Shown in pieces: positions 15,080-47,073 of a DNA stretch of 64,000 nt. The position numbers and the translations under genes are program-made. The notes beneath the pieces are model-generated. The model was given only the letters and a program-made list of their open reading frames with translations, had not been told where the DNA came from and did not search any database. The DNA comes from Minisyncoccota bacterium (lineage in GTDB: Bacteria > Patescibacteriota > Minisyncoccia > Phycocordibacterales > BOKC01), in NCBI GenBank assembly GCA_030583745.1, contig CP129473.1, forward strand, positions 530-64,529. Direction: 5' to 3'. How positions within the stretch are numbered: the first letter of the stretch is position 1; every line of letters starts with the position of its first letter.

Positions 15080-15153
15080 GTGGAATTGGGGAAATGGAAT
15101 TAATTTCTTCCCTAACCCTATACCCTAAACCCTAGTGGCTAGACCCTAATCTT

Positions 15154-31029: not shown

Positions 31030-31280
31030 GCGCTAGGTTTTTAGGCTCTAGGGTCTAGCCAATAGGGTTTAGGGCGTAGTCCGCCTCCGCCAGTTGACGG
31101 AGGCGGCTTGGCTGGAAAAGCCCTTATCGGGTATTCTATGAGTTAACGGGTGTTGAACTTTGGGGTTGAATTTACCTACGCGAGTATTGACATATTTATT
31201 AAAATATGATAGGTATATTAACGGAATTCACAGGGTGTTCCTGTGGAAGTTCTTCGTTAGCTTGCTGAAAGGAGCAAAGC

Positions 31281-31946
31281 ATGAAGCCTCGTACAGTTCG
31301 GGTCCTCTGCAGGGGTATTTCGCCCATTCTCATGGACCAGATGACAGAGGAGACCCTCGACAGCCTCGCAACCAGCGTCCGGCAGAACAAACCCAAGGAC
31401 AGACCGTTTGCGGATGTCGCGGAGGAGAAAATCTACCGCGACCCTATGACAGAGCGCATCGGCATCCCCTCGGAGATGCTCTTCGCTTGTTTGGTCGCAG
31501 CGGGCCGGAAGGTCAAGAACGGCAAGAGCCAGATCTCCACAGCAACCTCCTCGACCGTTCCGGACTTTCTCGAGATCCCCGACTTTTTCTTTCCGTTTCT
31601 CGGCATCCCCGAGAACGTGGAGCCGCGATCGGAAGACGAGAGGCAGCACTGGAAGGTGGATAAGAGACGAGGGCGTCTGCCCATCAACGGAACCGCTGTC
31701 TGCCTCATCCGTCCCCGCTTCAACAACTGGGAATTCAAGGTCACAGTGATCTACGATGCCGACAAGATCGATGGTTCTACGCTGAAGGCTCTCTTTGTGA
31801 ATGCCGGCAGTGGCCAAGGTCTTGGTTCGTTCCGCCCCAACTGCAGGGGTACCTTCGGGAAGTTCGTTGTCGTTTCTTGGGAGGAGACGGCCGGCGCTGT
31901 GAAGGAGGACGAGACGGAAGAGACGGACGTTCTCGCGGCTGCATGA
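31281..31946 (+). CDS. Hypothetical 221-aa protein with a C-terminal glycine-rich loop (possibly RAMP/Cas6- or Cas7-like). Unverified.
   Basis: Strong SD (aaaggag, 6 nt before the ATG). GC-rich with good coding periodicity. Segment FVNAGSGQGLGSFRPNCRGTFGKF is reminiscent of RAMP glycine-rich loops. Terminator at 32007..32045. Overlapping antisense ORFs are treated as spurious. Confidence 0.5.
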   Translation: MKPRTVRVLCRGISPILMDQMTEETLDSLATSVRQNKPKDRPFADVAEEKIYRDPMTERIGIPSEMLFACLVAAGRKVKNGKSQISTATSSTVPDFLEIPDFFFPFLGIPENVEPRSEDERQHWKVDKRRGRLPINGTAVCLIRPRFNNWEFKVTVIYDADKIDGSTLKALFVNAGSGQGLGSFRPNCRGTFGKFVVVSWEETAGAVKEDETEETDVLAAA

Positions 31947-32006
31947 CTGTGTGAAGTCAAGTCCAGCATCCTGGACTATACTCTAGTTAAGTACGCTCGC
32001 GTGCTC

Positions 32007-32045
32007 AAACCCCGTCGCTTCACCGTGGCGGGGTTTCTTTTCTAA
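32007..32045 (+). terminator. Intrinsic terminator after the 221-aa gene
   Basis: Stem aaaccccg/cggggttt followed by tttcttttct. Confidence 0.7.
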
Positions 32046-32134: not shown

Positions 32135-32681
32135 GAAGTTGCTAAAAAGTAACTTTGCTAATTAGAGGAGGTTAAAATTGTAGTGACGTGTAGTTCTGTT
32201 CCGTCGTCTGCGGTGGGGTGAAGTATACGGCAGAATCTTCGAAAGGGGATTCTGTCAATTATATATCGTGTCGTCCACTACAGTGCAGTTCGGCAAAGTT
32301 AGGTACGGTGGTCAGGTGGCGATTTTCGAGAGAAAGCCGCCACCTCTTTGCTTTCGGTGCGGTGTTTTGGGGTCCAATACCATGAACTATTGTGCAACAA
32401 GAGTCTTCGAAAGGAGATTTTACTGTTTTTAACTACAGCTCCCCAGACTACTCTTAGGTAGTGTTGCCTGACGCAAGGTATAGTGCAGGGCAGAATCTTC
32501 GAAAGGAGATTCTGTCGCTTTCTTCAGTGGAGTTAAGTTACCTCCCGTCGCGTATAGTCCACTACACGTCAGAATATCTGAAAAGATATTCTGACATTTC
32601 CTTGGTCTGTAGCAACCTGCAGTAAGGTGGGCTCCAGTATAGTTTAGTTCAGGTTAGAATCACTGAAAAGTGCTTCTAACA
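32135..32681 (+). repeat. Array 1: seven non-identical hairpins about 80-97 nt apart, capped by GNRA tetraloops (6x GAAA/GAGA, one AAAA)
   Basis: Hairpins: 32135-32156, 32231-32254 (cagaatcttc GAAA ggggattctg), 32315-32344 (..GAGA..), 32399-32421, 32491-32514, 32570-32593 and 32653-32680. Stems differ but keep pairing through compensatory and G.U changes that only pair on the + strand RNA. Motifs ACUACAG and GUAUAG recur between hairpins. Confidence 0.7.
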
Positions 32682-40860: not shown

Positions 40861-42204
40861 ATGATACAGGGCAATTTAATCTTTCTTCTGATAATTTATG
40901 TAGCATCTCTCTTTCTGATTTCTTGGCTGGTCTCCAGAAGACAGCAGTCCGAAGATTTTTTGATTGCCGGCAGGAACAGAAAAAGTTGGCAAATTCTTCT
41001 CTCAAAATTTGCCTCATCTATTGGTGCCGGATATTTTATAACCTATACTGGTTTTGCTTACGAATACGGCGTTGGTATTTTTGGAATGTTTATCGGAATG
41101 TTTGCCGGCTTTTTATTTTTTGCATATTGGGCGGCACCGAGAATTGCTCGTGGCTCAAAGGAAGGCAAATTTTACACCATCGGTCATTTTGTTTATAGCA
41201 AACTTCAGAACGATAAAGCCAGAATTTTAGCTGACATTTTTTCAAGTGGCATTCTTTTTGGTTGGTTGTTAGTTGGGGTTATTGGTAGTGGCAAGATAAT
41301 CGCTGATTTTGAACTTCTTTCTTATAATCTGGCTGTCGCGGTTACAAGTGTAGTAGTTTTGGGATATTTGCTTTTAGCTGGATTCAGGGCGGTTATTTTA
41401 ACCGATGTAATTCAATCAGCCGTTATTTTTATTTTGATGACTGTTATTACTTTCGGCATCATTCAAAACTCAAGTTTTTCTGAATTGCATTTTTCTTCTG
41501 CGAGCGAGCTTGATCTGGGTGTTGCGTTTGGTTTCTTCCTTTTTGGAGTGTTAAGTGTTTTTTCTTATTCCGACAGATACCAACTGTCCTACGCCGCCCA
41601 AGACGAAAGGGGTCTGAAAAACGGTCTTGGTTTGGCGATTCTGCCGATTGGTATAATCGCCTATTTTCTTTTTCTAATAGGCGTTTTTATGGCTAATCAG
41701 GTTCCGGGCTTGGACTCTGGACTGGTATTTACCGAGGCCTTAAAACAGTTTCTAAATCCCAAACTAGTTCCTCTCGCTATTGTTTTATTTTTTGCCGGGA
41801 TAATGAGTTCGGCTGATACTAATATCTATGCTATTTCTTCTCATTACGCTCTTTCCAAACCAAAAAGTAAAAACTACGCTAAGGATGTCCGGTGGGCAAT
41901 GGTTGGGCTCACCGCAGGACTGACTGTTCTGGCTATTATTTTCCCTTATGTGGTTAAGGTCTCTTTAGTTGCCGGCGCGATCTCACTTTTATTGTCTTGG
42001 CCTATGATTTATGTTATTTCCGGCGGACGAAATCCTAACAGATTTATAGGATCAATTATTACTTCAACTTTGGGACTTATAGGAGCTCTTGTTTTTCTCG
42101 GTCTGGAGCCGACGGCAGCAATAGTTATTATTCTCTTTGGTCCGATCGGTCTTTTATATTCTGGATGGAAAATTAAAAAGGCGGGAAATTGTATTCCTAG
42201 CTAA
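40861..42204 (+). CDS. Sodium:solute symporter (SSS) family transporter
   Basis: About 13 TM helices with SSS-like N-terminal composition. Confidence 0.6.
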   Translation: MIQGNLIFLLIIYVASLFLISWLVSRRQQSEDFLIAGRNRKSWQILLSKFASSIGAGYFITYTGFAYEYGVGIFGMFIGMFAGFLFFAYWAAPRIARGSKEGKFYTIGHFVYSKLQNDKARILADIFSSGILFGWLLVGVIGSGKIIADFELLSYNLAVAVTSVVVLGYLLLAGFRAVILTDVIQSAVIFILMTVITFGIIQNSSFSELHFSSASELDLGVAFGFFLFGVLSVFSYSDRYQLSYAAQDERGLKNGLGLAILPIGIIAYFLFLIGVFMANQVPGLDSGLVFTEALKQFLNPKLVPLAIVLFFAGIMSSADTNIYAISSHYALSKPKSKNYAKDVRWAMVGLTAGLTVLAIIFPYVVKVSLVAGAISLLLSWPMIYVISGGRNPNRFIGSIITSTLGLIGALVFLGLEPTAAIVIILFGPIGLLYSGWKIKKAGNCIPS

Positions 42205-42311: not shown

Positions 42312-43448
42312 TTACCTGATCTCGGCGCTAAATTGTCGCTTGGTCTCTTCTTCTATTTTTTTGTGGAGTTTTTCAACTTCGTCGGAAGTTAGGGTTCTGT
42401 CCATTGAGCGGTAAATAATTCGGTAAGTGTAGCTTGTTTTTCCAACACCAAATTTTTCAGCATTTTCGTATTTATCTAACAATTCAACTTCTTCAATCAA
42501 ATCACCGCCAATATCTCGGATCAGGTCAAAATAGTTGTTAGGTACGAAACTGTTATGAACGATGAAGGAAATGTCGCGCGGGGCAGGCGGAAACTTGGAA
42601 ACTTCCTGAAACTTAGCCCCTAGTTTTAATTGTTTTTTTACACGTTCGTCTTCTGACCAAAGCAGGCGAATATCCGGCAGATCCATGCTTAAAATTGCCA
42701 ATCTTTCCAAGCCGAAGCCGAAAGCCCAACCACTCCAAACTTTTGAATCAACTCCCAAATTTTCCAAAACTTTTCCGCTGACAACACCAGCACCCAAAAC
42801 CTCTATCCATCTGTCACCGATTTTAACTTCTATCTCCAAGCTCGGATCAGTATAAGGGAAAGTGTCGGGATTAAAGCGGTATTCAATGTCCGGACCGAAA
42901 ATTGTTTTCACAATTTTGTTCAAAATATCCTCCAAATCTTCCCGTCCGATGTTTTTTTCCTCACGCCGACAGAGAAACCAGCCGTCCATCTGATGAAAAA
43001 TGTTCATGTGATTCCTATCTATCTCGTCTTTCCGGTAAACTTTGCCGTGAGAAAGAGCCCCGACACTTTCTCCGCGATTAATTTTTTCCCTAACCTCTTG
43101 CTGTTTGAGGTGAAAATACCACATAACGGTGGTATGAGGGCGGAGGATGAAATCATCGTTTGCAAAATAAGTGTCCGACTTTGAACGTACTGGGTGGTTG
43201 GCGGGAAAATCAAATAAATCAAAACTGATTTCAGTTGAGACGATTTCTGGCGCTTCAACTTCGTCAAAATCTTCAAAATCTGACATCGCCTTTATTTTTT
43301 GAGCAAGTTCGGCAAGTGGGTTTCCCGAGGTTCTTGAAAGATCCGGCATTTCTAGAAATCGAATCATTCTCTTAGCTTCAGGGTCCTCTCGTTTTTCTAA
43401 TTCCGTTTTTAATTTAATTTCTTCTGAAGAGTTGACTATTATTTTCAT
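42312..43448 (-). CDS. pheS: Phenylalanine--tRNA ligase alpha subunit
   Basis: Class II aaRS core with FPANHPVR and MDGWF-like motifs. Start taken at MKIIVNSS, not the upstream in-frame extension. Confidence 0.85.
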   Translation of the reverse strand: MKIIVNSSEEIKLKTELEKREDPEAKRMIRFLEMPDLSRTSGNPLAELAQKIKAMSDFEDFDEVEAPEIVSTEISFDLFDFPANHPVRSKSDTYFANDDFILRPHTTVMWYFHLKQQEVREKINRGESVGALSHGKVYRKDEIDRNHMNIFHQMDGWFLCRREEKNIGREDLEDILNKIVKTIFGPDIEYRFNPDTFPYTDPSLEIEVKIGDRWIEVLGAGVVSGKVLENLGVDSKVWSGWAFGFGLERLAILSMDLPDIRLLWSEDERVKKQLKLGAKFQEVSKFPPAPRDISFIVHNSFVPNNYFDLIRDIGGDLIEEVELLDKYENAEKFGVGKTSYTYRIIYRSMDRTLTSDEVEKLHKKIEEETKRQFSAEIR

Positions 43449-43533
43449 ATCTAGAAAGATTATCAAATTCAATCTAAATTTGGAAGTTGAAAGCCCCGCG
43501 CCGGCGTACGCCGGCGCGGGGCTAATTTGAGAC

Positions 43534-43793
43534 AAAAAAATCCACCCCGACGTTTTCACGTCGGGGTGTGTATGGGCTACTTGCCCACCCTCTTCTGCTC
43601 ACCGCACTTCGTGGCGGTGGGCCGAACGGTCTGCTGTCTTCGAGGTGTCAGCCACGGTTCTGTCCGTGACCGATCCGTTCTGTGACCCTTACGGAACCGA
43701 CTGTCGGAGGAGTTGCGGGTTTGGTACGCCATCGTGTGTCTCCTTGATTGAAAGGAGTGTGTACCTGTGGGTGCGCCCTGTGCGCACCCATCT
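43534..43793 (-). ncRNA. GC-rich leader-like transcript upstream of pheS with its own promoter and terminator. May be a regulatory leader RNA and/or a 51-aa Arg-rich peptide.
   Basis: Minus-strand -35 TTGACT (43823-43828), 17 bp, -10 TAGACT (43800-43805). Terminator hairpin 43542-43568 followed by a U7 run. GGGUGG upstream is complementary to the terminator 5' arm CCACCC, giving an antiterminator alternative. The embedded ORF 43577..43732 has SD AAGGAGA. Confidence 0.35.
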
Positions 43794-43950
43794 TTTGATA
43801 GTCTATCATATAATAGACAGAAAGTCAAGTATATTGTTTAAAAAAACTCTCGAACTCTTTTTAAGCATATTTTCCCTTTGTTTTTCAGACCTTTTGCGGT
43901 AAAATAAAACTAAAGGTTTTAGATTCACCCGCTGTTATTTGGCGGGCTGA

Positions 43951-46032
<2,082 letters not shown>

Positions 46033-46218
46033 ACCTGAAAATTGCGAACTGCTTCGTTGTGCTGCGAAAAATGTTTCTCACCGTATTGTCACATACGGTT
46101 CGAAACATTTTTCTTGCGCGTCTCGTATCTCATCAATTTTCAGGCCTAGATAAAATCATATTCGGAAGTCCAACTTCCGAAATTTGACGTGGGAACTTTA
46201 ATTTTGTATATTTTGGAA

Positions 46219-46790
46219 GGAAAGTCAGCCAATGTAGGATGACGCATTTCTTCGGTCGCCCGGATGGGCTCAAAGGAGCGGATGCTCCAGGAGAAAATCA
46301 ATGTACACCAGAGAGGAAATAAAGGCTCAAGTTCGACTGAAGCGGCTATTCCGAGATTTTCCATGGCTCTGGGCACTTCAGAACCATTGGGCTCATTGGA
46401 ATTCTGTTCAAATCGAGTCAATTACCCTCATGAGGTTGTCTAGAGATTTTTCTCTATCTCTAGACGGGGGAACTTGGTGGGTCAAGCTATCATCGGGTGA
46501 CGGATTAACCCATCCTCTTGGACTTATAAAAAAGCTCGATCTGACTTCTGGTGCTGTTTCTCTTGCCACGGCAACTATAAGGAGCATACCAGGGATTGAT
46601 TACAACAAGATCGAGTTTTTGATCTTTCAGAGTCATGGGGGTCGTGGGGGTAATCTGTCTACAACAATCTATCGCGCTCCGCGCGGTCAGAATCTCCACC
46701 AGATGTGCTGTGAGGCGGCTGGGATTCGGGCCAAGAGCTGATCAACGCCATTTTGCCCCGCGCGACGTAGTCGCGCGGGGAGTTTCTTTT
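46219..46790 (+). ncRNA. Candidate large (~570 nt) structured non-coding RNA of unknown class
   Basis: Near-consensus promoter: TTGACG (46184-46189), 17 bp, TATATT (46207-46212). Strong terminator at 46756-46792. GC-rich in an AT-rich genome with many perfect hairpins. The only ORFs are W/R-rich, protein-unlike frames. Confidence 0.4.
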
Positions 46791-47073
46791 TCCCGCACAC
46801 CTGTTTTTACATCGTTGCACTTACATTTCCGTAACTTCCGTATTCAAACCTGGTAAGTCCTTGTAATTTAGTAAAATAATGTATAATTACCAATTATGGG
46901 AAAAAGAGATACCGGAGTAGGGAAAAGAAAAAAATCTCGCTCCAAAAAAACAAAAAAACGACTGGCGATAAAGTATGAAATGCTCTCAAAGCGTCAGGCC
47001 GGCAAAAAAAAGCGCTAATTAATTTTGTTGCCGAGACGGCATCCTTTAGCCAAACTATTTTAGTTTTTGGTTT

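Follow-up and report, generated by a model that had tools for sequence, protein, structure and literature searches.

What is the short, GC-rich transcription unit that lies between gyrB and pheS in this genome, a leader that regulates the synthetase gene downstream of it or a gene in its own right? The window analysed here, a stretch of 64,000 nucleotides from a genome of the Patescibacteria (candidate phyla radiation, CPR; Paceibacteria) with a GC content of 0.41, carries on its minus strand, directly 5' of pheS and in the same orientation, a promoter, a GC-rich transcribed region and a terminator. The initial annotation had left two readings side by side, an attenuator-like or T-box-like leader of pheS and a tiny arginine-rich protein. 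We consider the second to be close to the mark: the unit is likely to be a self-contained and unannotated microprotein gene, and not a pheS leader, as judged from its sequence and that of its relatives.

In the arrangement that we favor, a near-consensus sigma-70-type promoter with an extended -10 would start a transcript of approximately 260 nt that is GC-rich and U-poor, a strong Shine-Dalgarno (SD) sequence would open a frame of 51 codons, and a strong intrinsic terminator would close the unit; the coordinates are collected in Table 1. The promoter named in the initial annotation (TTGACT, 17 bp, TAGACT) is recovered both in the sequence and by a scan, with the addition of an upstream TG, and transcription would begin near position 43793. 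The 5'-terminal hairpin, which lies a few bases past the likely start, has all eight of its pairs held in six sequences, none being broken and four having both bases changed (GC to AU), and its loop fits NNRGG; one C-A mismatch occurs in L172 (related loci are given as L numbers). The SD has a predicted pairing with an upstream CUCCUU that is found in clade A alone, and the loop of this pairing is not the same in L161 and L172. The terminator is as first described, a hairpin followed by U7, with a stem of 11 bp (8 GC pairs, 43568-43543) and T7 at 43540-43534; it is found in every allele, and its formation is worth 14-22 kcal/mol.

The comparison of related pheS leaders that had been proposed proved informative, and it shows a unit that is conserved in three clades with an interior RNA structure that is not. 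Relatives of the PheRS (phenylalanyl-tRNA synthetase) protein encoded downstream were fetched (n=160, all CPR metagenome-assembled genomes or contigs), and three clades have a unit of the same architecture at the corresponding position between gyrB and pheS: clade A, the species to which the window itself belongs (L161, L081/L082, and L169-L175), clade B (L001/L162, PheRS 86% identical), and clade C (L083/L165 and L163, PheRS 85% identical). Shared by all three are the TTGAC, a TATGATA(G/A)nnT block in the promoter, the 5' hairpin, an SD followed by ATG (AAGGAG, CAGGAG or AAGGA, 6-8 nt 5' of the ATG), an open frame of 46-58 codons and the terminator, and synonymous sites between the clades are saturated, with a proportion of synonymous differences (pS) of ~0.7. 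The claim of a GC-rich unit of ~260 nt therefore stands, with a GC content of 0.57-0.61 and an architecture that is repeated in relatives beyond chance. An exact TTGAC-N13-TATGATA occurs twice in the window, and among 165 fetched loci it occurs solely at the unit. Searches of 80 related pheS loci with the unit by blastn and nhmmer gave no match, so nucleotide similarity does not reach past the closest clade, and when those loci were searched with a peptide-motif regular expression and scanned for GC islands, the unit came up in L001 only. The peptides of clades A and B are joined by tblastn (E = 1e-3 to 1e-4), at the syntenic site only. At L164 (78% identical) the gyrB-pheS slot holds an unrelated AT-rich open reading frame (ORF) of 75 residues, and the 34 loci with that arrangement have spacers of 49 to 1649 nt that hold other contents. 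As seen in these searches, the unit is confined to a small group of the Patescibacteria (CPR) within the Paceibacteria and is a candidate for a narrowly distributed microprotein family.

The evidence that carries the protein reading comes from the pattern of substitution in eight sequence variants of the three clades. Sense frame 0 alone is without internal stops in all eight, the ORF lengths (141, 144, 156, 159 and 177 nt) are all multiples of three, and L083 and L163 of clade C differ by an in-frame indel of 3 nt. Two close pairs of sequences have four synonymous and two non-synonymous changes and eight and five respectively in frame 0, and the other five frames, with 0-2 synonymous of 6 and 3-5 of 13, show no synonymous excess. 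The values of pS and of the non-synonymous proportion (pN) are 0.10 and 0.02 for the window and L161 (Fisher P 0.035) and 0.24 and 0.05 for L083 and L163 (P 0.004); pheS has a pS of 0.105 and 0.21 in the same two pairs, so that within an allele the ORF is under purifying selection, with synonymous change at the background rate. Codons 1-28 of alleles A2 and A3 have a pS of 0.84 and a pN of 0.32 (Fisher P = 1e-4), and pN is below pS in every comparison. The alignment has the motif [DE]-x-x-x-R-[KRS]-G followed by 8-10 residues and [EN]-P-[GW], with R14, G16, P26 and R32 invariant, and the core SDxR[FYC]R[KR]G...EP[GW] is preserved by means of differing codons: A2 and A3 keep S-D-x-R-[FY]-R-[KR]-G-F and E-P-G with TCG/TCT, GAC/GAT, CGC/AGA, AGA/CGG and GGG/GGA. 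As far as sequence evolution can speak, this pattern is the signature of a translated ORF. The conserved SD and ATG, the single open frame, the synonymous excess, the codon switches and the in-frame indels thus bear out the tiny Arg-rich protein of the initial annotation.

The predicted product is small and basic. The SD-preceded ORF encodes 51 amino acids rich in Arg and Thr, as originally noted (SD at 43745-43740, 10 Arg, 7 Thr), with a net charge of about +10 in the window and of about +8 to +10 generally, and the window ORF has SDxRFRKG at 43708-43685 and EP at 43660-43655. AlphaFold2 run on the single sequence predicts no secondary structure, with a predicted TM-score of 0.15. No allele has a match in Pfam, NCBIfam, PHROGs, PADLOC, or PDB sequences, or in phage genomes by tblastn, and a literature search gave nothing specific to this peptide or unit. 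A profile of six alleles used in a search of 5.8 billion proteins recovered only two alleles that were already known.

The ORF is also hypervariable among otherwise near-identical strains. When L081 is compared with the window, 92 of the 156 differences in 4 kb fall in 43560-43739, with ~99% identity outside of the ORF; the two are the same through ATGGCGTACC (43732-43723) and become identical again from the terminator on. An exact look-up of the window GyrB gives eight contigs from different samples, which carry three alleles between them. A1 is base-identical in the window, L170, L171, L173 and L175, and L161 is A1 with six substitutions; A2 is present in L169 and L174, together with L081 and L082; and A3, found in L172, is a mosaic whose 3' half is near A2 (pS 0.14) and whose codons 5-28 are saturated. 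The alleles differ at ~50% of their interior bases versus ~1% in the flanks, and the between-allele pS of 0.69-0.84 compares with 0.08-0.10 in pheS of the same strains and equals that of pheS between clades (~0.67). A1 and A2 are each identical over several independent samples, such that the alleles are discrete and stable, and ongoing hypermutation is thereby excluded. The pattern fits a set of old, discrete alleles that would have been moved by short-tract recombination. The idea that A2 is an inversion of A1 was considered and rejected, as their peptides can be aligned with frame and orientation unchanged.

Two smaller variable patches adjoin the ORF. The terminator loop is flipped, reading GTGAAAAC in A1 versus GTTTTCAC in A2 and A3, with identical stems, which amounts to a small hairpin flip (43551-43560) at the margin of the variable block. 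Codons 4-26 of pheS (43371-43438, minus strand) are a second, small hot spot of divergence: of 68 nt, 13-14 in the window are unlike those of L161 and of L081 (IIVNSSEEIKLKTELEK versus IKVNSLEEVKLKEELKK), and the rest of pheS is ~99% identical. This patch groups L161 with L081 and the small ORF groups L161 with the window, so the patch does not track the ORF allele and there has been recombination between the two.

Table 1. Positions in the window of the elements of the unit and of the adjoining pheS gene.
Feature	Coordinates	Strand	Basis and remarks
-35 TTGACT	43823..43828	-	consensus scan; TTGAC invariant in all relatives
Extended -10 TATGATAGACT	43800..43810	-	TG 43808-43807; hexamer TAGACT 43805-43800; 17-nt spacer in consensus scan
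5'-terminal hairpin	43769..43789	-	GGGUGCGC, loop ACAGG, GCGCACCC; 8 bp
SD with predicted anti-SD pairing	43740..43757	-	SD with upstream CUCCUU (43757-52)
Shine-Dalgarno AAGGAG	43740..43745	-	7 nt 5' of ATG at 43732
51-codon ORF MAYQTRNSSDSRFRKGHRTDRSRTEPWLTPRRQQTVRPTATKCGEQKRVGK	43577..43732	-	ATG 43732, TAG 43579-43577
Hypervariable ORF core	43572..43722	-	allele comparison; swapped as a block between strains (A1, A2, A3)
Intrinsic terminator	43534..43568	-	CACCCCGACGU, loop GAAA, ACGUCGGGGUG, then U7
32-nt perfect GC-rich palindrome AGCCCCGCGCCGGCGTACGCCGGCGCGGGGCT	43492..43523	.	between terminator and pheS
Putative pheS promoter and start	43446..43465	-	TG 43465-4, TAATCT 43462-57, ATG 43448-46; no SD
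'pheS'	42312..43448	-	378-aa single-chain PheRS: class-II catalytic core and FDX-ACB domain

There are several observations that weigh against a plain protein-coding gene, and these concern both the evidence for translation and the character of the RNA. The ORF is skipped by gene callers in most assemblies, the clade C version being called as a gene by JGI, and searches with the window peptide found no homologue among 5.8 billion proteins (word-indexed search) and no genuine homologue by phmmer over 1.84 billion representatives. Homology of the clade C peptide with those of clades A and B is a matter of synteny and a weak motif only. The substitutions in the two close pairs are few (6 and 13), and the codon alignments of distant alleles were guided by protein alignment, which biases pN downward; the case for translation is one made from sequence evolution. 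The nucleic-acid-binding role that we regard as most likely for the product is likewise read from composition and expression signals. At the RNA level, the GC content at third codon positions (GC3) is 0.70-0.75 in every allele and clade, and the same peptides written with the codon usage of neighbouring genes would have a GC3 of 0.40 (P<2e-4). The whole transcript including its untranslated regions is GC-rich and unusually well folded, and the GC3 excess and the strong folding together point to an RNA-level constraint beyond that of a plain protein gene. The sole phmmer match (P0121) is a 608-aa tandem-repeat translation that was judged spurious because its score is summed over ten repeats.

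The GC content is 0.57-0.61 across 43475-43774 (versus 0.41 for the whole window), U makes up 13-19% of the whole transcript versus 27% in neighbouring genes, and amino-acid composition fails to account for the high GC3 and low U. Folding compared with shuffled sequences gives z = -5.6 for the window transcript, with a second value of z = -4.8. We infer that the high GC3 and low U reflect selection for a stable, strongly folded and U-poor mRNA, and alternatives are that they may result from biased gene conversion at a recombination hot spot or from a second function at the RNA level. An RNAalifold consensus over the alleles and clades retains the helices of the 5' hairpin and of the terminator and none in the interior, where folding varies with the allele. 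A search with Rfam of the whole window at the gathering threshold reports tRNAs only and nothing at the unit, and among five related loci there is no T-box or other leader and no small RNA (sRNA) family (6S, tmRNA, RNase P and SRP included). A possible enrichment of CsrA-type GGA motifs was dropped, the counts being near expectation by eye.

The relationship of the unit to pheS bears directly on the leader model. The terminator had been placed just before pheS, and this does not hold: ~90 nt intervene, containing the 32-nt palindrome and a promoter-like block. The palindrome occurs in clade A, with a degenerate form in L163, has only sub-threshold hairpin-type matches in Rfam, and is probably a second terminator or an insulator. 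Following it, clades A and C have TGATAATCTTT(C/T)TA 8 nt 5' of the pheS ATG, and in L001 TGATACAAT lies 9 nt 5' of it, in the same TGAT-A form as the extended -10 of the unit itself; a consensus promoter scan at pheS chose another, non-conserved hexamer pair. An extended -10 this close to an ATG that has no SD suggests an mRNA that is leaderless or nearly so, and we infer that pheS is transcribed from its own extended -10 promoter in this manner. The initial annotation had named such a promoter, with an independent unit upstream, as the finding from transcript mapping that would speak against a leader, and at the level of sequence only, both are indicated.

Two further observations concern the same spacer. 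In L163 (2740-3000) an insertion of ~230 nt parts the promoter-like block (CTGATAATCTTTTTAGGTA) from the pheS ATG, with the two adjoining in its close relative L083. Six Logan contigs (L170-L175) stop within or beside the palindrome or the terminator, which is probably an assembly artefact of the palindrome, and as the contigs break there the small ORF and pheS rarely share one short-read contig.

An attenuator or leader of pheS, in the manner of a T-box, of pheM at pheST or of pyrBI (the pyrL type), would work by read-through of the terminator, either when an antiterminator forms or when a translating ribosome masks the terminator, and its appeal lies in the position of the unit directly 5' of pheS on the same strand, in the lack of an SD and of a strong consensus promoter in the scan at pheS, and in a window allele whose stop codon is ~8 nt from the terminator stem, such that a terminating ribosome could overlap it. 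That distance is ~8, 22, 50, 15 and 19 nt in different alleles, however, and the fixed spacing of ORF end and terminator expected of a leader-peptide attenuator is thus not seen across them. The proposed pairing of GGGUGG with a CCACCC in the 5' arm of the terminator survives in part: the arm reads CACCCCGACG, so only GGGUG:CACCC, 5 nt, is complementary. The pairing is neither conserved nor the predicted fold, in which the GGGUGGGC segment pairs locally with GCCCA in a small hairpin around the stop codon; the segment reads GGGCGGG in the near-identical L161 allele (GGGUGG to GGGCGG), and clades B and C have no equivalent. The nascent 5' arm is paired elsewhere with a probability of 0.3-0.8, which favors a leader, although the minimum-free-energy and centroid folds retain the terminator in all alleles; folding of the alternative structures, a check suggested at the outset, does not give an antiterminator as the predicted fold of the nascent RNA, and no conserved antiterminator is present among the alleles or in clades B and C. 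A suggested covariance-model (Infernal-type) scan fared no better, finding no T-box (Rfam RF00230) or other leader in 43350-43950 even at E<=10, with otherwise sub-threshold matches on the palindrome; Phe_leader reaches 16.5 bits versus a cut-off of 55, and on the opposite strand. The UUCA offered as a possible Phe specifier is indeed present (43752-43749), in the loop between SD and anti-SD, which is not constant in clade A. The window ORF has a single Phe codon in 51, and other alleles have 0-3, which agrees with the initial argument against a Phe leader peptide. Add to this the strength of the terminator, the second hairpin of 15 bp that follows it in clade A, the conserved extended -10 block 8-9 nt 5' of the pheS ATG, and the relatives, most of whose pheS genes lack the unit and have gyrB-pheS spacers of 49-101 nt without a leader or unrelated genes in the slot, and we regard a pheS attenuator, T-box-like or otherwise, as quite improbable. 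The pheM/pheST attenuator of E. coli and the T-boxes of aminoacyl-tRNA synthetase genes resemble the unit in that a PheRS gene is preceded by a promoter, by a structured leader or a short ORF, and by an intrinsic terminator; they differ from it in that the unit has no Phe-rich ORF, conserved antiterminator or T-box or Phe_leader match, has extra elements between terminator and pheS, and is missing at most relatives' pheS genes.

Three other explanations accept the unit as independent of pheS. That it specifies a structured sRNA, non-coding or dual-function, with the ORF incidental or secondary, would accord with a GC content of 0.60 in a 0.41 genome, the low U content, the folding z scores, a GC3 far beyond the need of the peptide, the covarying 5' hairpin, the unit's own promoter and terminator, and an ORF that gene callers mostly skip. 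However, only the terminal hairpins are common to the alleles and no Rfam family matches, and an RNA-only function leaves the frame-specific substitutions, the SD and ATG, the in-frame indels and the multi-nucleotide codon switches unexplained, so we think an sRNA unlikely; the transcript may still have a dual role, as an mRNA and at the level of RNA. A functionless GC-rich remnant of foreign or mobile DNA, open in frame since stops are rare at high GC, is suggested by a gyrB-pheS slot whose contents vary by lineage, by other variable islands nearby, and by a GC-rich gene at 31281 with a phage-family match and the same promoter type, and we estimate that a 50-codon frame at 60% GC would be open by chance ~20% of the time. 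But a remnant would not be expected to hold its promoter, 5' hairpin, SD, ATG and terminator over three clades at saturated synonymous sites, to have pN below pS throughout, to keep the same single frame open in eight of eight variants, or to persist as identical alleles in independent samples, and we rate it as very improbable. Genomes of the CPR are rich in diversity-generating retroelements (DGRs), and localised hypermutation, with the ORF as, for example, a DGR variable repeat, would draw on that richness and on a variable block that runs as far as the ORF's 3' end, with a GC-rich hairpin after it. We give this almost no credence: the 64-kb window has no template-repeat copy of the region, there is no reverse transcriptase among the neighbouring proteins scanned, differences at ~50% of positions involve all four bases and indels and not template adenines only, A1 and A2 are each base-identical in several independent samples, and L161 differs from A1 at exactly the background synonymous rate.

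Returning to a microprotein gene, its mRNA would be stable and abundantly translated, because its promoter and SD are strong, it has a hairpin at each end, and U makes up 13-19% of it. The product may be a disordered Arg-rich peptide that binds nucleic acid, either RNA or the ribosome, or possibly the hairpin on the mRNA that encodes it. The allelic diversity could be explained by rapid evolution of the protein combined with homologous recombination of short tracts among members of a species complex, and diversifying selection possibly maintains it. A more specific version, which we hold as tentative and rather doubtful, is that balancing or diversifying selection keeps a few ancient alleles that are shuffled by intragenic recombination, with the peptide, abundant and disordered, as a strain-specific determinant of these ultra-small symbionts toward, for example, a host cell, phage or competitor, and the GC-rich, U-poor and strongly folded mRNA as a second selected layer that would confer stability or a dual RNA function.

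Each of the known systems that come to mind fits in part. Pherotype loci such as comC, agrD and comX are polymorphic peptide loci with discrete alleles and conserved flanks, and our locus resembles them in its short ORF, its few deeply diverged and stable alleles in near-identical genomes, and its recombinant mosaics; it differs in that the peptide has no signal or leader-cleavage motif and is highly basic and hydrophilic, and in that no adjacent processing or receptor gene co-varies, as gyrB and pheS variants do not track the allele. The tiny and very basic bTHX is a ribosomal protein of Thermus, Bacteroidota and, as PSRP4, chloroplasts. Its sequence, which we take to read GDRRTRRGK...YRPRKK, resembles by eye the SDNRCRRGY...WRPRRR of L001, a likeness that no profile search confirmed; Thx models in Pfam and NCBIfam and PDB chains have no match to the alleles at E<=10. 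The spacing is also different, and 50%-diverged alleles within one species are not what one would expect of a ribosomal protein. Small Arg-rich proteins of bacteria include the DUF1127 family, represented by YjiS of Salmonella and by small Agrobacterium proteins (PMC11707872, PMC12501420). These are similar in being stand-alone genes for Arg-rich products of ~50 aa or fewer that are often missed by annotation, although the peptide described here has no DUF1127, Pfam or NCBIfam match and is predicted to be disordered, occurs in one small Paceibacteria group, is hypervariable, and has a GC3 far above that of its genome.

The neighbourhood of the unit is one of housekeeping genes. The gyrB-like gene is divergent from the unit, at 43963, and the wider surroundings include RF-1, S2, EF-Ts, tRNA-Thr, ThrRS, DnaE, MscS and L25. 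The pairing of domains in the PheRS (Table 1) is that of the mitochondrial type, unlike the alpha2beta2 form of bacteria, and CPR homologues with the same length and domain pair number in the thousands (5953 proteins at E<=1e-100).

Elsewhere in the window an exact TTGAC-N13-TATGATA recurs just once, and there it drives a second GC-rich unit (31187-32040, plus strand). It has a 5' hairpin (CACAGG/CCTGTG), an SD, an ORF for 221 aa (31281-31946, ~60% GC) and a terminator near 32005-32035. The 221-aa protein has no Pfam match and is matched by the phage family phrog_4652 (E = 1e-17), and a scan of viral contigs with it gave no match; identical copies of the unit in the same synteny are present in Logan contigs L166-L168. 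Just 3' of this phage-like gene, in a gene-poor stretch with low-complexity 'tagggt/tagtt' sequence around them, are four copies of the hairpin motif CAGAATCTTCGAAAGG(G/A)GATTCTG (32217-32595, plus strand) at irregular spacings of ~80-260 nt, and a related inverted repeat of 31 nt pairs 15118-15148 with 31049-31079.

Other variable or unusual segments of the window are also worth recording. A second variable island lies on the far side of gyrB (46138-46837, plus strand), with an ORF for 146 aa (46301-46741) that has no family match, a GC-rich 3' end and an CCCCGCGCG hairpin terminator; its counterparts are 106-168 aa long and are swapped or missing despite an identical GyrB (L161, L169-L174). 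Close by is a very lysine-rich ORF of 40 aa, MGKRDTGVGKRKKSRSKKTKKRLAIKYEMLSKRQAGKKKR (46896-47018, plus strand), with no family match and the AT-rich codons typical of the genome, possibly a further unannotated basic microprotein. On the other side, ~1 kb (40971-41968) within a 447-aa ORF resembling a sodium:solute symporter (40861-42204) is absent from L081, L161 and L169, with a 7-nt overlap at the junction, and reflects either a deletion in those strains or an insertion in the window. Finally, a long run of CCN/CCACCT repeats (52281-52502, plus strand) forms the GC maximum of the window (0.73) and would encode a Pro-rich tract in a 542-aa protein without a Pfam match (ORF 51852-53480).

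These considerations remove a false lead, there being no evidence here for a new kind of pheS attenuator. They also bear on the biology of the CPR/Patescibacteria, whose small proteins are systematically missed and whose genomes consist largely of unknown genes, and for which the unit, if it is the microprotein gene that we think likely, would be a concrete case. It has two notable properties, a strain-level hypervariability within genomes that are ~99% identical and an anomalous GC content at synonymous positions. If the diversity is indeed selected, then the locus would be the marker of an interaction at the level of strains, in organisms not yet culturable.

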